Assembly (NCBI GenBank): GCA_034659915.1 | Contig: JAYEID010000012.1 | Span: 1 to 59,686, forward strand | Source: Patescibacteria group bacterium | Lineage (GTDB): Bacteria; Patescibacteriota; WWE3; JAUXAW01; JAYEID01 | DNA length: 59,686 bases | Direction: 5' to 3' | Shown: piece after piece, positions 19,115-56,294 of the stretch | How the letters are laid out: each line of letters opens with the position of its first letter | How positions within the stretch are numbered: the first letter of the stretch is position 1 | Position numbers and translations under genes: made by a program | Notes under the pieces: generated by a model | What the model was told of the DNA's origin: nothing | What the model saw: only the letters and a program-made list of their open reading frames with translations | Databases searched by the model: none

Positions 19115-19363
19115 ATGTATTACTTTTATATTCTACGCTGTTCTGATAATTCTCTGTACTCCGGAGTAACAACCAACCCCAAAAGAAGGGTTAAGGAACA
19201 CAATTTTGATAATGTCAAAGCTTCAAAATATACAAGGGCGCGCCGCCCGGTAAAACTAGTTTATACAGAAAAACACAAAAGCAAAGAAAGCGCACTGAAG
19301 CGGGAAGCAGAAGTTAAGAGTTGGAAAAAGAAAGAAAAAGAAAAACTAATCTCTTCTAACTAA
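19115..19363 (+). CDS. GIY-YIG nuclease superfamily protein (UPF0213-like)
   Basis: MYYFYILRCSDNSLYSGVTTNPKRRVKEHN is the GIY-YIG signature. 82 aa. Confidence 0.85.
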   Translation: MYYFYILRCSDNSLYSGVTTNPKRRVKEHNFDNVKASKYTRARRPVKLVYTEKHKSKESALKREAEVKSWKKKEKEKLISSN

Positions 19364-31401: not shown

Positions 31402-31676
31402 AATTAGTAGTAGGCAGTAGTCATCAGTAATCCTCGATCCGCTTTCGGCAGTCATCCTGAAGGAGTCCCGATTTATCGGGACGACTGAAGGATCCCCTGC
31501 AAAAGGCACTGTACAGTAACATCACGGTCGCCGAAGAGGCGACTTCTACCCGTCATTTAAAATTCAAAATCTATTCCCTATTCATTATTTATTATTTAGT
31601 ATTTCGTATTTATTTGGAGCTTCGTATTTCGAATTTTCTTTATTTGTAATTTGTTATTTAGTGTTATTTAGTTATC

Positions 31677-31717
31677 GAGACCTCCAAGGATTAAACAGGT
31701 TAAACCTTGCAGGACTC
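31677..31717. repeat. conserved AGACCT hairpin module of the composite repeat (copy A)
   Basis: GAGACCT-C-CAAGG[loop]CCTTG-C-AGGACTC. The inner stem covaries with copies at 46999 and 55895. Confidence 0.55.
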
Positions 31718-31749
31718 TCAGGTCCGATTCTCCAGTTACGAGTTACGAG

Positions 31750-31773
31750 TCCCTGCCGGCCGGCAGGCAGGTC
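31750..31773. repeat. P1-type GC-rich palindrome (CCCTGCCGGCCGGCAGGCAGG)
   Basis: Other members at 47650, 51497 and 55861. Confidence 0.7.
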
Positions 31774-31843
31774 CAGTCTCTTATCTTTTATTCCTTAACT
31801 CTTATTTCTTATCTCAGCTCAACTTCGTCTTTTTTTTTCTTCC

Positions 31844-40499: not shown

Positions 40500-40625
40500 A
40501 GTTACCAGTTTCCGGTTTCTTCTTTCTTATTCGTAGTATATTCGTTGTACGAATAGAATTTATACCTTAATTATTCGCAATGTATTCGCTATCCCAATGC
40601 TTACTACTAACTACTGATTACTAAT
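40500..40625. repeat. composite repeat fragment, copy E (ATTCGN word array)
   Basis: CTTATTCGTAGTATATTCGTTGTACGAATAGAATT..CCTTAATTATTCGCAATGTATTCGCTATCCC matches the reverse complement of 55660-55860. Confidence 0.6.
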
Positions 40626-46633: not shown

Positions 46634-47218
46634 AGCGGGCTAAATCTTAACATAAAACAAGTAAATTGTCAGCTATTAGCTATCAACAACCACTCGTCAC
46701 TCTGCGGTCCAATCCGCCCTCCGCTTTCCGTACACCGCGATCATCCTGAAAGAGTTCCCGATTCAATTTAGCAGTCATTCTGAGCCGAGCTTCCAGCGAG
46801 GCGAAGAATCCCCTGCAATAAACTGCAACATCGCGGTCGATTCTTCGTCGGTTTAAGAAAACCTCCTCAGAATGACTTCTAGCCGTCATTTAAAATTCAT
46901 CCCCTATTTCCTATCTCTTATTCATTATCCCTTATTTATTATTTATTATTTCTTTATTTGTTTGGAACTTGGAATTTGTAATTTGTTATTTAGTTATCGA
47001 GACCCGAAGGGACGTACCCTACGCCTGCCGTGTACTCTACGTAGTACTGCGGTGGTGCTGTTCTCCAAGGACTACATCCGTAGACCCCTGGGGTGTGCCG
47101 TATGGTACTACCCTTGCAGGTTCTCTTAGGTTCCAGTCCCTTCCTCCCAATTCACATGAATTTGCTATTATTAAATTCGCAACGTATTCGCTATACTAAT
47201 TCGCATTAATTAGCTATT
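46634..47218. repeat. composite intergenic repeat, copy B
   Basis: Colinear with copy A. Contains a roughly 103-nt nested hairpin (GTCATTCTGAG 46774-46784 / CTCAGAATGAC 46866-46876, inner CGAAGAATC/GATTCTTCG). Also contains an ATTCGC word array at 47160-47215. Confidence 0.75.
46999..47125. repeat. AGACCT hairpin module with a roughly 100-nt insertion in the loop (copy B)
   Basis: GAGACC-CGAAGGG...CCCTTG-C-AGGTTCTC. The loop includes ACCCCTGGGGT (47084-47094). Confidence 0.45.
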
Positions 47219-48352
47219 TCAAATCTTAAACTCAACCACATCACTATCGTGGACAATATAATCTCTCCCACGCACATCAATAATTCCCTGTTCCTTTGCA
47301 GCTAACCACGAACCAGCCTCAATCAGCTCTTGGACTTGAACAACTTCTGCCCGGATAAAATTCTCGGCAAAATCACTATGCACAATTTCAGCTGCCCGCA
47401 AAACAGAAGAACCCTTCTTAATTGGCCAAGCACGAACAATCTCCCCTCCCTTAACAGTGTAGAAAGTAATCAATTCCAAAAGATTATAGCAGCCGCGGAT
47501 TACCTTATCCAAAGCAGACTCCGAAATACAAACCCCCTCTAAGTACTCTTTCCTTTCTTCCGGCGTAAAATCCGCTAAATCCTCTTCCAACTTGGCACAA
47601 ATGGGGATGGCCGAAGATAGGCTACCGCATTCCTCAGCCTCAGGAGCTAGACCTGCCTTGCCGGCAGGCAGGTCCGCAGAAGCCCCTGGGGCTTCTCCTG
47701 CAGCAGCCTCGTCTATATTGGCCACCACCAACTGCGGCTTCATAGTTAATAAATTCAAATCCTCTATCGCCTCTTCCTCTTCTTCTGTAAGCTTTGCTTC
47801 CACAGCCAATCTCCCCTCCTCCAAAACCTTTGACACCTTCTCAACCGCCCTCTTTTTTATTGTTTCTCTCTTATTTACATTTCCTTTTTGGAACTTGGTC
47901 CGCCGGCCGGCGGATTGGATTTGGAATTTCGAAATCCTCTCTAAATCTTTGAGCAACAACTCCGTATTAACTGTTTGCAAATCCTCCGCAGGATCAGCAC
48001 CACCTACCCTTTCCACACCCTCGCCTTCAAAAGCACGAACCAAATGCAACACAACATCCACATTTCTGATATGAGAAAGAAATTCATTGCCCAGACCCTC
48101 ACCCTCATGTGCACCTTTGACCAAGCCAGCTATATCCACAAACTCAATAGCAGCAGGTATTTTTTCTTTTGGATTTAAAACTTCTGCAAGCTGGTCTAAA
48201 TGCTCGTCTTTTACTTCCACCACCCCCACGTTCGGCTCAATCGTACAAAACGCGTATGGAGCGGTATTAGCCACACTACGACCAAGAAGAGCATTAAAAA
48301 GTGTTGATTTTCCAGCATTAGGAAGCCCTACAATTCCTACAGATACATCCAT
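47219..48352 (-). CDS. ychF: redox-regulated ATPase YchF carrying repeat-derived segments
   Basis: [27 protein letters not shown]-terminal TGS-like [13 protein letters not shown]...FIRAEV. Confidence 0.92.
47650..47674. repeat. P1 palindrome inside ychF (GACCTGCCTTGCCGGCAGGCAGGTC)
   Basis: Translated in frame as DLPAGKAGL. Confidence 0.8.
47678..47696. repeat. P2 palindrome inside ychF (AGAAGCCCCTGGGGCTTCT)
   Basis: Perfect 9-1-9 palindrome, translated as GEAPGAS. Confidence 0.8.
47900..47913. repeat. P3 palindrome inside ychF (CCGCCGGCCGGCGG)
   Basis: Flanked by TTTGGAACTTGGT and ATTGGATTTGGAATTTCGAAAT, strings otherwise seen only in the intergenic composite repeats. Confidence 0.75.
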
Positions 48353-49575: not shown

Positions 49576-50994
49576 CTATAATAATTTTTGAATTCGGGAG
49601 CCTTCCGGAGTATCTTCAACAGAAAACCCTAATTTTCTTATCTTTTCTCGAACCTTATCTGCTTCATTGTATTCACCAGCTTTTCGAAGCTGCTCACGTT
49701 TTTTAACTAACTTTTCCACTTCCTCAGGAACATGTGTAACTTCCACATTTCCTAGACCTAAGCCCAGAACATGATCAAAATCCGAAACAAGCTTGCGGGC
49801 TACAGATTGAAAAGCAGAGTCTCTTTCTCCCTCTTTGACAACTTCCCACACCACAGACAGCGCTTTTGGCATATTTAAATCATCATTTACTGCTTGAAGA
49901 AACTGTTGTTGATAATAATCCTGCTTTTCAACCAAAGGTTCTGTCAATTGGTAACTTTCCTCGACATTGGCACTTCTCCTTAATTTTTGGCGGAGGCGCG
50001 TCAAGGCGCTCTGGGCCGAGTCTAATGCCTCCCAAGTAAAGTTTAGAGGATGTCGATAACGAGCTGTAAGACAAAGATACCGAAAGGTTAAGGGGTCGTA
50101 TCCTCTTTCCACCAAATCACCAATAGTATAAAGGTTTCCTTCTGACTTACTCATCTTTCCACCCTCAACCTGCAAAAAAGCTGCGTGTAACCAAGTTTGA
50201 ACAAATTTCTTTCCTGTTGCAGCTTCGCTTTGGGCAATTTCATTTTCATGGTGGGGAAAGATATTATCTTGGCCCCCAGTATGGATATCCAACTGTTCAC
50301 CCAAGTACGCCATACTCATTGCACTACACTCAATATGCCAACCAGGATAACCCGTACCCCACGGTGATTTCCACTTCTGGAGATGATTTTCATCCACTAT
50401 CCATAATGCAAAGTCAAAAGGGTTCTTCTTCCCCGGTACTGGTTCAAGCCGCGCACCAGCACGAAGCTCCTCCAAATTCTTCCCCGAAAGCTTCCCATAT
50501 TCTGCAAATTTTGAAATGTCAAAGACCAGATACCTACCAGCCTTGTATGTATAATTCTTTTCTTCCAGGGTCCTGATAAGCTCAATCATCTCTCCAACAT
50601 GCTCTGTTGCCTTAGGCATTACGTGTGGCTGTTGTATATTAAGTCTTTCTAAATCTCTTAAAAAGGCGTTGGTATAAAAATCCGCTATTTCCTCAGGAGT
50701 CTTTTTCTCTTCTCGTGCTGCCTTTTCAATCTTATCCTCACCACTATCCGCAGCCAAATCATCATCGGTCAAGTGACCTACATCAGTAATATTCATTACT
50801 TGCTTAACAGTATAACCATTGTATTCCAAAACGCGCCGAATCAAATCCGACATAATATACCGCCACATGTTTCCAATGTGAGCATACATATAAACTGTAG
50901 GTCCACAGTCATACATTCGTACAAAGTCGTCTTTCAAAGGTTCAAACTCTTCCTTTTTTCGAGATAATGTATTGTAAAAAATCAGCTTAGACAT
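49576..50994 (-). CDS. cysS: cysteine--tRNA ligase
   Basis: [17 protein letters not shown]...[13 protein letters not shown] (HIGH), KMSKS. The track extension to 51081 runs into repeat DNA. Confidence 0.92.
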
Positions 50995-51247
50995 AACTAT
51001 ATAATAACATAGGAAAGGTAAACCATGGGAACATAGAACAAAAAACATGAGAAGAGACTGAAGACAAGAGACTAGTAACAAGAGATAAGAAATAGAAAAT
51101 AATACGGAAGAAATTACAAATCACATCCGCCGGCTGGCGGATCAAGTTCCAAAAACGAAAAATAGAGAATAAGAAAAAAAAATCAACAAGAGGTAACTTC
51201 AAACTTTGAGCAAAAAGTAGTCAACAACAAGCAAAAAATCTGTATCC
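50995..51247. repeat. composite intergenic repeat, copy C (inverted relative to A/B)
   Basis: AAATTACAAAT[CACATCCGCCGGCTGGCGGAT]CAAGTTCCAAA is the reverse complement of the TTTGGAACTTGG..ATTTGTAATTT block of copy B, with a P3 palindrome inserted. Confidence 0.65.
51127..51140. repeat. P3 palindrome variant (CCGCCGGCTGGCGG)
   Basis: One mismatch from a perfect palindrome. Sits in copy C. Confidence 0.7.
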
Positions 51248-51928
51248 CTAAAATTCTGTGCGTCCCTCAAAAGCGTGGGAAAGTGTTACCTGGTCAGCAT
51301 ATTCTAAATCCCCTCCTACCGGCAAACCTTTAGCAATTCGAGTAATCTTTATATTCAGCGACTCTAACTGCTCTTTTATATACATTGCTGTTGATTCCCC
51401 CTCCATCGATGGGTTAGTAGCAATAATTACCTCGGAAATCCGCTCATCGCTTTCCGATTCATCGGCCGCAGCAGGAGAAGCCCCAGGGGCTGGGGAACCT
51501 GCCTTGCCGGCAGGCAGGTGCTGCGGGCTATTTTTCACGCGGTCCACCAATTCATTAATCTTCAAATCTTCAGGACCAATATTATTAACAGGCGAAATAA
51601 CACCATGTAGAACATGATAGAGACCTTTATAATCAGTAGTACCCTCTACCGCCAAAACATCCAACGGGCTTTCAACTACACATATAGTTGATTTGTCCCT
51701 ACCCGAAGAGCGGCAAATTTTACATGGGCTCTCCTCATCAACACTAAAACAAATTTCACAAAGAACAGTCTTCTTTCGCAACTCAAACAATGCCTCAGCT
51801 AACAAGTCCACTTCTTCTTCAGGAACATAAAGAAGATAAAAAGTCAGCCTTTTTGCTGTCTTTGGTCCTATACCAGGAAGCCTTTGCAATGCGTTTATTA
51901 AATTTTGTACTGGTTTTGGTATTTCCAT
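51248..51928 (-). CDS. recR: recombination protein RecR with a repeat-derived in-frame insertion
   Basis: LPGIGPKTAKRL (HhH), C4 zinc finger CEIC..CKIC, Toprim EVIIATNPSMEGESTAMYI. Confidence 0.92.
   Translation of the reverse strand: MEIPKPVQNLINALQRLPGIGPKTAKRLTFYLLYVPEEEVDLLAEALFELRKKTVLCEICFSVDEESPCKICRSSGRDKSTICVVESPLDVLAVEGTTDYKGLYHVLHGVISPVNNIGPEDLKINELVDRVKNSPQHLPAGKAGSPAPGASPAAADESESDERISEVIIATNPSMEGESTAMYIKEQLESLNIKITRIAKGLPVGGDLEYADQVTLSHAFEGRTEF
51474..51491. repeat. P2 palindrome inside recR (GGAGAAGCCCCAGGGGCT)
   Basis: Translated as part of [10 protein letters not shown]. Confidence 0.75.
51497..51519. repeat. P1 palindrome inside recR (ACCTGCCTTGCCGGCAGGCAGGT)
   Basis: Identical 23-mer to the ychF copy. 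Translated as HLPAGKAGS. Confidence 0.8.
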
Positions 51929-51978: not shown

Positions 51979-53622
51979 TTAAACTAAGTCATCACTAAAA
52001 ATCTTAGCTGCTTCCTCATCATATTTTTCCAAGCTCTTATGATCCGAGACATTCCCCTTCCCCCCACTCTTTTTTTTGTCCTGCGGAGAGCTCTCCTCAG
52101 ATCCCTCACTACCTTTTTCCTCTTCCGCTTTATTACCTCCTTCACTACTATTATCCGAAACAGAAGCAAAAGAATCCTCCGAGCCCAAAACACACTCCAC
52201 TCGCACAGGAACTCTAATAACATCTTCTATCACTTTTTCAATAAGCGTTTTATTCTTAGTTGAATTTAACTTATCCTTATGAAAAGAGTAAAAAGCTTCT
52301 AGTACCAAAACTTCGCCATCGTAAGATTTGGGCCGGACAGATCTCAGTAGTGCACCAAGAGAGTGGTTATAAGGCTTTACTGAATTTAAAACTTGCTTCC
52401 AATTTTCCTTCACCTTTCTTAAGTTCTGCACACACCTACTCTTAACATAAGCACTTTCAGCAGTAGCGTTCCCATCTTTCTCATTCTTATTTCCCTCAGA
52501 AGCTGTATTTCCCGAATTAGGAGCCTTTTCCTTACTATTTTGAGAAGACTTGCTCTCGCTATTTTCTAAAAAACTTACAACTACCAACTCAAGACCTAGA
52601 GTAGGAATAGGAGAGACTGAAAGGTATTTCTCAGACTGAGTAATTTCATTAATCAATTCCCTATTTCTCGCTACCGTCAAGGACTTTGCCTGTTCACACA
52701 TTTTTCCAAATTCCTCTTCTGAAGCTTCCACCAGCTCCTCTCCAACCTCGGCATTAATAAGCAAAAGATCTCGCAAATAATCCAAAAGGTTGCTATAGAA
52801 AAACTCAAGGTCTCCCCCACTTTCGTAATATTTATTTAGAAAAACCAATGCAGCTTCTTTGTCACTCTCTATCAAAAAATCTACAAAAGATGGGATATCC
52901 AAGTTTCGGCTCCCCCCAACCACGGCATCAACACTTTCTCCTCCAACAATAACCTGCTCCAAAATTGTCTCTGCATCTCGATACGCCCCGCGCGCAGCCC
53001 GTGCTATTTTTCTTAAATCATTTTCTGGCAAAGATACTCCTTCTTTCTCACAAATCATTTTCAACAAATCCACAACCTGATCTTCTCGAGCACGCTTAAA
53101 TTCGAAAATTTGACAACGGGACCTAATAGTTGCTGGAACCCGCTTTGGCTCAGTAGTAGCCAAAATAAAGATAGCATGCTGCGGAGGCTCCTCTAGAGTT
53201 TTTAAAAGCGCATTAAAAGCTTCCCGAGTAAGCATATGAACCTCATCTACCACATAAACTTTCTTCCGACCCTGGGTAGGTGCCAACTTAACTCTATCCC
53301 GCAATCTTCTAACATCTGAAATCCTCCTGTTGGAAGCAGCGTCAATCTCAATTAGATCCATAAACTTGTTTGCCGCAATTGCTTTACAAGAAGCGCACTC
53401 TCCACAAGGCTCGCCAGACCAATTTTTCTCACCAGCTTTCTCACAATTAACTGCTTTAGCCAGCAGTCTAGCCGTGGTTGTCTTACCTGTTCCCCGAGGG
53501 CCTGCGAAGAGATATGCATGCCCTACTCTCCGCTTAGAAAGGGATTTTAAAAGAGAATTCTTAACCGCCTCCAAGCCAACTAGCTCTTCAAATTTCTGTG
53601 GGCGATACTTAGTATAAAACAT
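51979..53622 (-). CDS. dnaX: DNA polymerase III subunit gamma/tau
   Basis: KYRPQKFEELVG, GPRGTGKTT, zinc module C..C..C, VYVVDEVHML, SRCQ. Confidence 0.92.
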   Translation of the reverse strand: MFYTKYRPQKFEELVGLEAVKNSLLKSLSKRRVGHAYLFAGPRGTGKTTTARLLAKAVNCEKAGEKNWSGEPCGECASCKAIAANKFMDLIEIDAASNRRISDVRRLRDRVKLAPTQGRKKVYVVDEVHMLTREAFNALLKTLEEPPQHAIFILATTEPKRVPATIRSRCQIFEFKRAREDQVVDLLKMICEKEGVSLPENDLRKIARAARGAYRDAETILEQVIVGGESVDAVVGGSRNLDIPSFVDFLIESDKEAALVFLNKYYESGGDLEFFYSNLLDYLRDLLLINAEVGEELVEASEEEFGKMCEQAKSLTVARNRELINEITQSEKYLSVSPIPTLGLELVVVSFLENSESKSSQNSKEKAPNSGNTASEGNKNEKDGNATAESAYVKSRCVQNLRKVKENWKQVLNSVKPYNHSLGALLRSVRPKSYDGEVLVLEAFYSFHKDKLNSTKNKTLIEKVIEDVIRVPVRVECVLGSEDSFASVSDNSSEGGNKAEEEKGSEGSEESSPQDKKKSGGKGNVSDHKSLEKYDEEAAKIFSDDLV

Positions 53623-55303: not shown

Positions 55304-55485
55304 TTATGATGCTGAGAGAATCGCCATTCAAGTTCTTTTCTCTTTTTCTTCTTTATCTCTGACGGTGGTCTGTAATACTCTCGCTTTTTCAACTCTTCTA
55401 TAATCCCGGCATCATAAACTTTTTGATTAAAGCGGCGAAGCGCTTGCTCAATAGACTCCCCCTCCCGTACCTTAACTTCAGTCAC
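55300..55485 (-). CDS. rpsU: 30S ribosomal protein S21
   Basis: VKVREGESIEQALRRFNQKV...YYRPPSEIKKKK. Confidence 0.9.
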   Translation of the reverse strand: MTEVKVREGESIEQALRRFNQKVYDAGIIEELKKREYYRPPSEIKKKKRKELEWRFSQHHK

Positions 55486-55860
55486 GTGTACTAAATTACA
55501 CCTCCTTATTAAAAAAACTTTTAAACTTAAAATAAATTCTGTCGCTTAAATTTTACACTTTTACAACAAGGTAAGCAAATTATGCCCAAAAAGAAAAAGG
55601 CTTCCCTACAGGAAATAAACAGGTCAAACCTCAACTCCTCCCTATATGAAAAGAAAAATTGGGATAGCGAATCTATGCGAATTGATATAGCTAATTTATG
55701 CGAATTTAACAGTAGCGAATTAATGCGAATTAGTATAGCGAATACGTTGCGAATTTAATATAGCGAATCTGTTACGAATAGTTAAGGTATGAATTCTATT
55801 TATGCTACGAATTGACTACGAATACTACAAATATACTACGAATAAGAGAGAAGAAACTGG

Positions 55861-55881
55861 ACCTGCCTGCCGGCAGGCAGG
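55861..55881. repeat. P1 palindrome (ACCTGCCTGCCGGCAGGCAGG), perfect 20-bp core
   Basis: CCTGCCTGCCGGCAGGCAGG is its own reverse complement. Confidence 0.8.
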
Positions 55882-55894
55882 CACTCGAACCTAA

Positions 55895-55934
55895 AAGACC
55901 TGCGGGGTTTCGGAATCGAATCCCCGGAGGTCTT
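55895..55934. repeat. AGACCT hairpin module (copy D)
   Basis: AAGACCT-G-CGGGG[TTTCGGAATCGAAT]CCCCG-G-AGGTCTT. The inner stem is CGGGG/CCCCG where copy A has CAAGG/CCTTG. Confidence 0.6.
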
Positions 55935-56069
55935 GGTAGATTGCAGAAAGAAGATAAGAAATAGTAAATAGGAGATAAGGGATAAGGGATAGGAGATAAA
56001 AATAAATTACAAATGACAAATGCGGAGAGTGGGGTGCTGTACATCGTACGCGGAATACGGACACCCGAT

Positions 56070-56083
56070 CCGCCGGCCGGCGG
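56070..56083. repeat. P3 palindrome (CCGCCGGCCGGCGG)
   Basis: Identical to the ychF copy. Confidence 0.75.
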
Positions 56084-56294
56084 AGGCGGACGAAGCTCCA
56101 AATAAATACGAAATATTAAATAAGAAATAATAAATAATGAATAATGAATAAGAAATAAAGGGAGGTGGAAAATAATTGCTTATTGTTAATTGCTGACAGC
56201 AGAATGCGGATATCTAATTACTAGTTACTAATCACTAATTACTTACTACTTACTACTCGCTAATTACTAGTTACCAGCTGCTAACTGCTTACCA

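Follow-up and report, generated by a model that had tools for sequence, protein, structure and literature searches.

In-frame palindromic insertions in the recR and ychF genes of a member of the Patescibacteria and their relation to a 20/21-nt palindrome present in several phyla

A palindromic insert within recR

The window analyzed here, by which we mean the whole of contig JAYEID010000012.1 from a Patescibacteria group bacterium (assembly GCA_034659915.1; 59,686 nt), carries a recR gene that contains, in frame, a short block of GC-rich palindromic DNA, part of which recurs in the ychF gene of the same window (Table 1). Pfam recognizes the RecR_HhH, RecR_ZnF, Toprim_4 (residues 80 to 199), and RecR_C domains in the encoded protein, and its alignment to solved RecR structures falls into two blocks that leave residues 134 to 160 unmatched in all of the structures compared (3vdp, 1vdd, and others). 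A first-pass annotation, made from the sequence alone, had put this surplus at about 30 codons, close to the 27 found, and was right that the reading frame is kept, as holds for both recR and ychF. It placed the insert ahead of the Toprim start, whereas the insert lies within the Toprim domain, between a helix (residues 124 to 132) and a strand (residues 166 to 170). Both of these bordering elements are confidently predicted in the AlphaFold model of the window RecR, which has a mean predicted local distance difference test (pLDDT) score of 79.9. In this model, residues 133 to 165 are coil and residues 136 to 160 have a pLDDT below 50, and the insert is predicted to be a disordered surface loop, the outcome that the annotation had proposed to look for by structure prediction.

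The insert is equally conspicuous in base composition. The GC content is 41% for the window and 43% for recR and reaches a local peak of 65% at the insert, and the two longest islands with at least 70% GC in the window, 47643 to 47713 in ychF and 51459 to 51531 in recR, are exactly the palindrome loci. The coding strand of the insert reads AGC CCG CAG CA/C CTG CCT GCC GGC AAG GCA GG/T TCC CCA GCC CCT GGG GCT TCT CCT GCT GCG GCC…, with 21 nt between the slashes. Its conceptual translation, which includes …KNSPQHLPAGKAGSPAPGAS…, is rich in Pro, Ala, Gly, and Ser.

Two modules, which we call P1 and P2, account for the palindromic character. P2 is the 21-nt form, with an added A, of the 20-nt perfect palindrome CCTGCCTGCCGGCAGGCAGG, which consists of two abutting 10-nt arms, and it lies in the 23-mer ACCTGCCTTGCCGGCAGGCAGGT, of which there are exact copies in recR (51497 to 51519) and ychF (47651 to 47673) and none expected on the basis of 100 dinucleotide shuffles. 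P1 contains GGAGAAGCCCCAGGGGCT (51474 to 51491), an inverted copy of which is found at 47681 to 47698. The sequences and positions that the annotation gave for its two recR palindromes stand, but the P1 copy is truly palindromic only over AGCCCCAGGGGCT. A further layer had been missed, namely, an outer inverted repeat that encloses both modules. In minimum-free-energy folds of both strands, the outer arms pair around two inner hairpins to give a three-way structure (z of about −2.4 to −2.7). Since removal of the 21-nt P2 leaves the older hairpin intact, coding for 21 residues, P2 sits in a preexisting palindrome.

The composite copy in ychF

The composite of P1 and P2 in ychF lies 3.8 kb from that in recR and has the opposite orientation relative to its gene, the best alignment being that of recR (plus) with ychF (minus). 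Both coding strands read LPAGKAG because the extra base of P2 is on opposite arms in the recR and ychF copies, and a 3-nt indel elsewhere in the composite likewise preserves the frame. In other genomes, the insert is missing from the ychF genes of loci L001 and L006, and that of L003 has an unrelated insert at this position. P1 is a lineage-specific module, as it had no match in the viral contigs and none in 2.0 Mb of other loci, and its candidacy as a widespread element was rejected on these grounds. The copies in recR and ychF may have arisen by local copying, whether the composite transposed over a short range or was transferred by ectopic gene conversion. The annotation's view that the 23-mer is shared by recR and ychF and that close variants lie in two intergenic spacers is confirmed, one of the latter being an imperfect 20-mer (CCTGCCGGCCGGCAGGCAGG, 31752 to 31771) and the other a perfect one (55862 to 55881), so that this is repeated DNA common to two unrelated genes and to spacers. 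With respect to protein length, YchF has 377 aa in the window versus 353 aa in relatives with an insert-free RecR.

The RecR junction in relatives

The homologs of the window RecR are from Patescibacteria, and the gene order dnaX-recR-cysS-…-ychF is conserved in relatives. The six closest homologs (222 to 275 aa), with flanks 73 to 80% identical to those of the window protein, have different inserts at exactly the same junction, and slightly more distant ones (198 to 206 aa) have none, which bears out the lineage specificity that the annotation had suspected. When the alignment is considered together with further homologs, including several further lineages, the inserts at this junction range from 0 to about 75 aa and are unrelated in sequence. 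At least 18 RecRs from Patescibacteria possess such unrelated, hairpin-rich, and often nested inserts, with other RecRs possessing none, and the insert-bearing proteins are identical between independent assemblies. The RecR junction is a recurrent insertion hotspot across Patescibacteria.

The inserts of relatives are themselves layered and form strong hairpins at the DNA level. That in the recR gene of L001 comprises two inner palindromes enclosed by an outer stem of 13 bp (dG, −28.3; z = −9). The L003 insert is an element of the L001 type with a second element nested within it, and this second element is found also in L003 ychF, precisely at the site taken by P1 and P2 in the window; its recR copy has 20 nt more nested in its loop. 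This parallel occupancy of recR and ychF suggests either that hotspots are shared or that an ancestral insert was replaced in concert in both genes. A palindromic element of the form CCGTCATTA…CGTCAGATCCTGAATC…CAAGTTCAGGATGACG was noted in both recR and ychF of this locus (L003:907-1734 and L003:3330-4541).

A separate RecR lineage, hit independently by P2 at the same junction, provides a trio of sites with and without insertions that can be compared at the DNA level. The empty site, in P0102, reads …GGGTTGGGGAA/TCGGCGGCGG…, the slash marking the junction. At this junction P0041 has a perfect 20-mer, together with one extra G in an upstream run of G's, and represents a compensated frameshift because 20 and 1 sum to 21 nt. 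In P0022, an unrelated 42-nt palindrome lies 3 nt away. The outer stems are common to all three, and the palindromes are layered like the skins of an onion.

In two relatives with an insert-free RecR (L286 and L287), GC palindromes are fewer and period-7 arrays almost absent, a comparison confounded by their GC content of 0.51 to 0.52 versus 0.41. Separately, a 315-aa RecR homolog from Rokuibacteriota (P0008) repeats about 100 of its residues exactly (…LSALVAVKERIVYCTICFNV…KVRELL twice), probably as an assembly artifact or a recent tandem duplication.

A 20/21-nt palindrome in unrelated genomes

The palindrome core of P2 was recovered from at least 120 genome loci, with one genome considered per species, and the flanks of these loci are unrelated to each other. 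The perfect 20-mer CCTGCCTGCCGGCAGGCAGG accounts for nearly all of the matches listed, most often as a single copy per 8-kb locus. The hosts include many classes of Patescibacteria, Bacteroidota, Planctomycetes, Gammaproteobacteria, Thermodesulfovibrio, Thermodesulfovibrionales, Omnitrophota, Elusimicrobia, and others, with cultured carriers (Winogradskyella echinorum, Zunongwangia pacifica, Aquiflexum lacus, and Flagellimonas spp.) among the Bacteroidota. The 20-mer is also present in 35 viral stretches, with up to six copies per contig, as against 0, 1, and 0 matches for composition-matched control palindromes. Curated phage and plasmid records yielded no perfect 20-mer, only imperfect chance matches in high-GC taxa.

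The 21-nt form, with the same added A as P2, occupies at least 127 sites in at least 120 metagenome stretches, and the two forms differ sharply in their relation to genes. Coding occupancy was counted among the matches listed in loci or contigs of low GC (below 50% for the 20-mer loci), with open reading frames (ORFs) of at least 150 aa considered. On this basis, 24 of 104 20-mers are located in ORFs, compared to 80% of random positions, whereas the 21-mer is located in ORFs at 82 of 119 sites (Fisher P = 8e-12 for occupancy). The frame-shifting 20-nt form is strongly depleted from ORFs, and the frame-keeping 21-nt form is found there at a near-random rate. The coding 21-mers are further biased in how they are read: 46 of the 82 are in the single strand and phase that produce LPAGKAG (binomial P = 6e-16), and another 14 are in the frame that produces PALPAGR. 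The window conforms to this coding rule, as its perfect 20-mer and 20-nt variant are in spacers and its 21-mers are in recR and ychF.

The 53 host ORFs bearing LPAGKAG among these matches fall into 49 unrelated clusters. Their products include the DNA polymerase III alpha subunit (DnaE), class II ribonucleotide reductase, PIF1 helicase, S49 and S9 peptidases, MacB/FtsX, and restriction-modification methylases. In the DnaE of L230, the LPAGKAG unit coincides with an exact 7-residue gap relative to Thermus DnaE. The two closest DnaE relatives (85% identity) lack the insert, and more distant ones have eroded versions at the same codon, a pattern that reflects either recurrent insertion at a single site or precise losses of an insert that is old. 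The eroded forms are seen at one codon in the parcubacterial relatives P0127, P0128, P0130, P0133, and P0139 (DLSAGSQGSS, ELPATSSGQAA, DLPLDGTGSG, and DLPAGSGGRDLH).

No Rfam family matched the palindrome at the gathering thresholds or at an E value of ≤1. The searchable literature mentions neither the 20-mer nor either half of it, nor the peptides LPAGKAG and LPAGRQ, and gives no account of palindromic in-frame elements in Patescibacteria; these negatives are not proof of novelty, but the 20/21-nt family is apparently undescribed so far.

Features of the insertion sites

Comparisons of sites with and without the unit (L036, L094, P0041 versus P0102, and DnaE) revealed precise insertion with no target duplication. 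A purine directly precedes the 21-mer at 96% of sites, and this preference is a property of the element or of its target because it is the same in coding and noncoding DNA. New units also tend to fall within or beside older palindromes. At 10 to 15% of sites, identical heptamers adjoin both sides of the palindrome, compared to 0.5% of random positions, and these heptamers often belong to tandem arrays whose sequence differs from locus to locus. Examples of arrays on both sides of a palindrome, P, are (GATTTTT)n[P](GATTTTT)n and (GGACAAG)n[P](GGACAAG)n, and heptamer-flanked palindromes were observed at L170:7159, L171:7805, and L178:9079, at two sites in L240, and in L207, L253, L275, L116, L129, and L061. 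A target site duplication model was considered and set aside, as exact 7- to 8-nt direct repeats are present at a minority of sites and are often parts of longer tandem arrays.

Association with GIY-YIG genes and tRNA fragments

A small stand-alone GIY-YIG gene lies within 22 to 214 nt of the 20-mer in 8 of 155 loci among the matches listed (P of about 1e-9). Seven of these loci share a common order, beginning with an orphan 5′ tRNA fragment that stops in the D-arm; the 20-mer comes next, and a spacer separates it from the GIY-YIG ORF, beyond which lies an intact tRNA (L036:2100-2480, L094:2125-2515, L098, L089, L102, L112, and the viral L158); in the eighth, L013, the palindrome is on the 3′ side. 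The GIY-YIG products are about 80 aa long, and the tRNAs are those for Leu (four), Lys, and Arg. The 20-mer is positioned exactly at the D-arm break of the orphan fragment, that is, at the left junction of the cassette. Pfam PF01541 matches the ORFs of L036 and L098, and jackhmmer recovers the remaining cassette ORFs; NCBIfam has no model for these small GIY-YIG proteins, and the searchable literature on GIY-YIG domains with tRNA provided nothing relevant.

We also considered the 20-mer as a precise insertion in the D-loops of functional tRNAs. This proved wrong for most loci, as in silico deletion restored a tRNA only at L029. The interrupted tRNA sequences are orphan 5′ fragments at the edge of a GIY-YIG cassette with an intact tRNA downstream and not functional D-loops.

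The window itself encodes an 81-aa protein of this type. The mobilizing activity might thus be supplied by a small GIY-YIG nuclease, a proposal made because the 20-mer marks the left junction in seven cassettes and because the window genome encodes a homolog. This is the weakest step of the mechanism proposed below, and we treat the link to the GIY-YIG nuclease as a lead and not as a finding, with the window gene as a candidate factor that may act in trans.

Other palindromes and repeats in the window

In addition to the composite, ychF contains a second, different palindromic segment that the first-pass annotation had missed in reporting the ychF copy. It belongs to a second widely shared family of mini-palindromes, H3, with the consensus TCCGCC(A/G)GC(C/T)GGCGGA, whose members occupy spacers, the tips of longer hairpins, and long ORFs of unrelated genomes. 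The H3 element of ychF is present also in the ychF genes of L003 and L006 and is missing from that of L001. The family occurs in eight other unrelated loci and in the relative L006, these counts having been made without control palindromes. Places at which the palindrome was noted are three in the window (Table 1), L006:6914, L018, L032, L037, L081, L106, and L113.

All of the period-7 arrays in the window are intergenic, and most are close to GC palindromes. The spacer at 55304 to 56294 is unusually long, at about 1 kb, and is a mosaic of repeats common to at least four other spacers; within it, the perfect 20-mer and an H3 palindrome occur alongside period-7 arrays and a long hairpin (55897 to 55936). 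Spacers with mosaic repeats were also observed at 31540 to 31830, 40510 to 40600, and 46870 to 47216, and a 48-nt segment is matched at 98% between spacers (47169 to 47216 and 55713 to 55760). The first 17 kb contain dispersed pairs of direct repeats of 65 to 136 nt that are 71 to 77% identical (9566-9701/16086-16221, 7676-7770/10911-11005, and 9193-9257/10863-10927).

Among the genes near recR, the cysS ORF is at 49576 to 51081, and DnaX (51979 to 53622) has 547 aa, compared to 417 to 512 aa in relatives with an insert-free RecR, its tail being of low complexity and rich in Ser, Glu, and Gly. Other housekeeping genes of the lineage may carry similar inserts.

Table 1. Genes and palindromic elements of the window, with the evidence for each
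Position	Strand	Feature	Evidence
19115-19360	plus	Small GIY-YIG nuclease gene, 81 aa	Pfam PF01541, E = 5.5e-19; grouped by jackhmmer with the 20-mer-adjacent ORFs
31752-31771		20-nt variant CCTGCCGGCCGGCAGGCAGG in spacer	Flanks 87% complementary to those of the copy at 55862
47219-48352	minus	ychF coding sequence, 377 aa, with two palindromic inserts	PDB YchF 1jal, E = 3e-82, with gaps at both insert sites
47651-47708	minus	Second P1+P2 composite, ~58 nt, in frame in ychF	End-to-end alignment with the recR copy
47860-47930	minus	H3-family hairpin element in frame in ychF; palindrome TCCGCCGGCCGGCGGA at 47899-47914	79% complementary to spacer 51110-51180
51110-51180	plus	H3 element copy in the spacer after recR; palindrome TCCGCCGGCTGGCGGA at 51126-51141	Complementary to the ychF element at 47860-47930
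51248-51928	minus	recR coding sequence, 226 aa	ORF; PDB RecR chains match at E = 6e-65
51449-51529	minus	In-frame insert, 81 nt, residues 134-160 (27 aa)	Two-block alignment to solved RecRs
51464-51491	minus	P1 module, 28 nt; palindromic core AGCCCCAGGGGCT at 51479-51491	93% complementary to 47681-47708
51466-51526		Outer 8-bp inverted repeat, CCGCAGCA (51466-51473) and TGCTGCGG (51519-51526), enclosing P1 and P2	Minimum-free-energy DNA fold
51498-51518	minus	P2, 21-nt variant (+A) of the 20-nt palindrome; LPAGKAG on the coding strand	23-mer containing P2 exact at two window loci
55862-55881		Perfect 20-nt palindrome CCTGCCTGCCGGCAGGCAGG in a long noncoding spacer, surrounded by period-7 arrays	
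56069-56084		Spacer copy of the H3 palindrome TCCGCCGGCCGGCGGA	

Origin of the RecR segment and alternative explanations

Small GC-rich palindromes inserted one within another in a permissive loop of the Toprim domain are, in our view, the likely origin of the RecR segment, which would be baggage at the DNA level and not a feature of RecR as such. It would persist because it comprises a multiple of three bases and codes for a harmless peptide. The palindromes would be nonautonomous mobile elements, a bacterial counterpart of the GC clusters of mitochondria, and would insert preferentially at or in existing hairpins; their mobility is suggested by their distribution and by the pairs of sites with and without the unit. 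After insertion, selection would filter the copies on frame and peptide, as indicated by how the 20- and 21-nt forms differ, by the bias toward one frame, by the compensating base in P0041, and by the switch of arms between recR and ychF. The first-pass annotation had likened this behavior to that of selfish palindromes of Rickettsia; the comparison is supported as far as behavior goes, but membership in those families fails on size, sequence, and host range. The circumstances it had named as contradicting its reading (the same RecR segment in close relatives whose genomes lack the palindromes elsewhere, palindromes unique to these loci, or an assembly chimera) were not encountered. The picture is wider than the annotation had drawn it, as it includes a recurrent hotspot at the RecR junction, a nested composite insert, the place of P2 in a cross-phylum 20/21-nt family, and elements that lie outside the Rickettsia families.

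The peptide itself invites a different account, in which RecR acquired an adaptive, lineage-specific flexible linker of Pro, Ala, and Gly, with the palindromy and the likeness to ychF being by-products of similar low-complexity peptides. The segment is indeed of low complexity and predicted to be disordered, and the many Patescibacteria RecRs with something at this junction could reflect selection for a longer linker. Nevertheless, the identity is at the level of DNA, with an exact 23-mer and a 93% matching 28-mer in two unrelated genes and P1 read from opposite strands; 49 unrelated gene families share the 21-mer, and spacers contain the 20-mer. Given also that close relatives have inserts with no relationship in sequence or length and that several relatives have none, we regard this account as very unlikely. 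An origin on the spot, through hairpin-driven replication errors such as template switching, quasi-palindrome correction, and slippage at a mutational hotspot, would explain the nesting of palindromes within palindromes, the apparent movement of the extra base of P2 between arms (as in quasi-palindrome template switching), and the tandem heptamer arrays beside a subset of sites, which suggest slippage near a hairpin. A local process cannot, however, yield an identical 20-mer at hundreds of unrelated sites across phyla when matched palindromes are essentially absent, and the pairs of sites with and without the insert show exactly this unit inserted in otherwise colinear sequence. Such an origin is thus unlikely, although hairpin-templated errors may contribute to the layering and to the arm switch.

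Some of the copies are located where a function in cis might be expected: spacer copies lie downstream of genes, in the position of terminators (e.g., 51110 to 51180 after recR), the 20-mer is found in the 5′ region of GIY-YIG genes, and the DNA and RNA folds are stable. Domestication of the hairpins as transcription pause sites or terminators, as RNase III or other processing sites, or as sites for recombination or structure-specific proteins appears quite unlikely to us, though conceivable for some spacer copies, as there is no relationship among the host genes or among the insertion positions in them, the copies decay by substitution in the DnaE relatives, the bias in frame and peptide indicates selection on the translated product instead of the hairpin, and no Rfam family is matched. 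That a synthetic or chimeric palindrome entered the contigs during library construction or assembly is scarcely credible. An identical short palindrome in the assemblies of many projects might raise this suspicion, as palindromes can cause chimeric reads, but an artifact would sit poorly with the preference for one reading frame, the occurrence of 21 nt in ORFs versus 20 nt outside them, the nearby +1 base that compensates in P0041, and the decay of orthologous copies by substitution in DnaE. Moreover, the palindrome is reproduced in independent assemblies and cultured isolates, and the perfect copy is missing from curated phage and plasmid records.

A more specific proposal, which we offer only tentatively and think doubtful in its full extent, is that CCTGCCTGCCGGCAGGCAGG is an ultra-small mobile palindrome, common to many low-GC phyla and their viruses, that is the nonautonomous partner of small tRNA-targeting GIY-YIG cassettes and inserts without duplication after a purine, with a preference for existing hairpins. 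Its 21-nt, frame-neutral subfamily encoding LPAGKAG would have settled in essential genes (recR, ychF, dnaE, and the ribonucleotide reductase gene, among others). In the streamlined genomes of the candidate phyla radiation (CPR), mini-palindromes of this kind, along with H3 and lineage-specific families, would be a main source of lineage-specific loops in conserved proteins.

Several observations weigh against the interpretation of the RecR segment as a stack of mobile palindromes. No transposition event, donor, or enzyme was observed, and mobility is a reading of the distribution of copies. P1 was found only in recR and ychF of the window, so that its status as a repeat amounts to two copies, and the count of P1 and P2 in this organism rests on 59.7 kb of its genome. 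The matching heptamers at 10 to 15% of sites do not fit simple insertion without target duplication. With regard to the GIY-YIG link, the window GIY-YIG gene has no adjoining palindrome, and the coding 21-mers are not adjacent to GIY-YIG genes. The identity of the 20-mer across phyla might reflect phage-borne spread or constraint by a conserved enzyme, both of these being guesses, and it is possible that the RecR loop or the mRNA hairpin has a function.

Palindromes that invade protein-coding genes in frame have so far counted as oddities of Rickettsia and fungal mitochondria. If the interpretation of the RecR segment as stacked palindromic insertions is correct, such invasion would be general in low-GC bacteria, including the CPR, and many unexplained lineage-specific loops in CPR housekeeping proteins would have a DNA-level origin. 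A bare 20-nt palindrome of the same sequence across phyla would then be the smallest mobile unit known, which raises the question of the enzyme or process that copies it. It would also constitute a natural experiment on the tolerance of insertions, with the same seven residues placed in hundreds of folds and the contrast between 20 and 21 nt built in. In practical terms, recognition of the palindrome units would improve gene calling, by flagging 20-mers that resemble frameshifts, and the alignment of CPR proteins, and the cultured Bacteroidota carriers open the mechanism to experiment.

Comparison with known systems

The seven cassettes, as opposed to the recR insert, have the hallmarks of GIY-YIG homing cassettes, namely, an ORF with a GIY-YIG domain and a conserved target that is disrupted or duplicated. 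They resemble the free-standing homing cassettes represented by the seg genes of phage T4 in combining a small GIY-YIG ORF with a tRNA gene, a partly duplicated target, and phage-like contigs. According to the published account, T4 SegB lies in a tRNA cluster (PMC2330249). In the present cassettes, an invariant 20-nt palindrome is located at the cassette junction in the orphan tRNA fragment and is also found alone at hundreds of sites. To our knowledge, no such companion palindrome has been described for the seg genes.

Miniature inverted-repeat transposable elements have terminal inverted repeats, a target duplication of fixed length, and a parent insertion sequence (IS), in contrast to the bare, abutting 10-nt arms and lack of duplication seen here; no IS with matching ends turned up in any locus, though no systematic search was aimed at such an IS. 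REP/REPIN elements, associated with RAYT, and elements derived from IS200/IS605 are likewise short, nonautonomous hairpin repeats that are presumed to be moved in trans. Elements of the IS200/IS605 type insert beside a short specific sequence and leave the target unduplicated, which resembles the duplication-free insertion after a purine observed here. However, REPs are extragenic, species-specific, imperfect palindromes with a conserved head, whereas the present copies are both intragenic and extragenic and are identical across phyla. No RAYT or TnpA gene was seen beside any copy of the palindrome, the sole recurrent neighbor being the GIY-YIG gene.

The Rickettsia palindromic elements (RPEs) are likewise found in frame in many unrelated housekeeping genes, in positions compatible with the protein fold, and also have noncoding copies. 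In-frame and fold-compatible insertion in unrelated genes is what we find in recR, ychF, and 49 families elsewhere, the compatibility of the RecR loop being a prediction. RPEs, however, are about 150 bp long (roughly 100 to 150 bp), form ten families with a conserved peptide each, and are confined to Rickettsia, whereas P2 has 20 or 21 nt (7 codons), the composite has about 58 nt, the insert has 81 nt, and the hosts belong to many phyla. Judged by the published description of RPEs, the present elements would have no sequence relationship to them.

The GC clusters of yeast and other fungal mitochondria (e.g., in var1) are, like the elements described here, short GC-rich palindromes in AT-rich DNA that are mostly intergenic and sometimes in frame. 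Their in-frame copies alter the length of the protein, they are optional among strains, and they merge and shuffle into composites; terminal repeats or tandem arrays mark the target sites of some. The layered RecR inserts and the composite of P1 and P2 behave alike. The present elements showed no evidence of translational bypassing. They differ from GC clusters in being bacterial or viral and not mitochondrial, as judged by the bacterial gene content and the patescibacterial homologs of RecR. GC clusters also vary widely between mitochondrial genomes, whereas the present unit is one perfect 20-nt palindrome that is identical across phyla, and the AG/TAG terminal duplication of GC clusters is not seen in the pairs with and without the unit (L036, L094, P0041/P0102, and DnaE). 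The elements thus belong neither to the RPEs nor to the mitochondrial GC clusters, and it is the GC clusters to which they bear the closer likeness.

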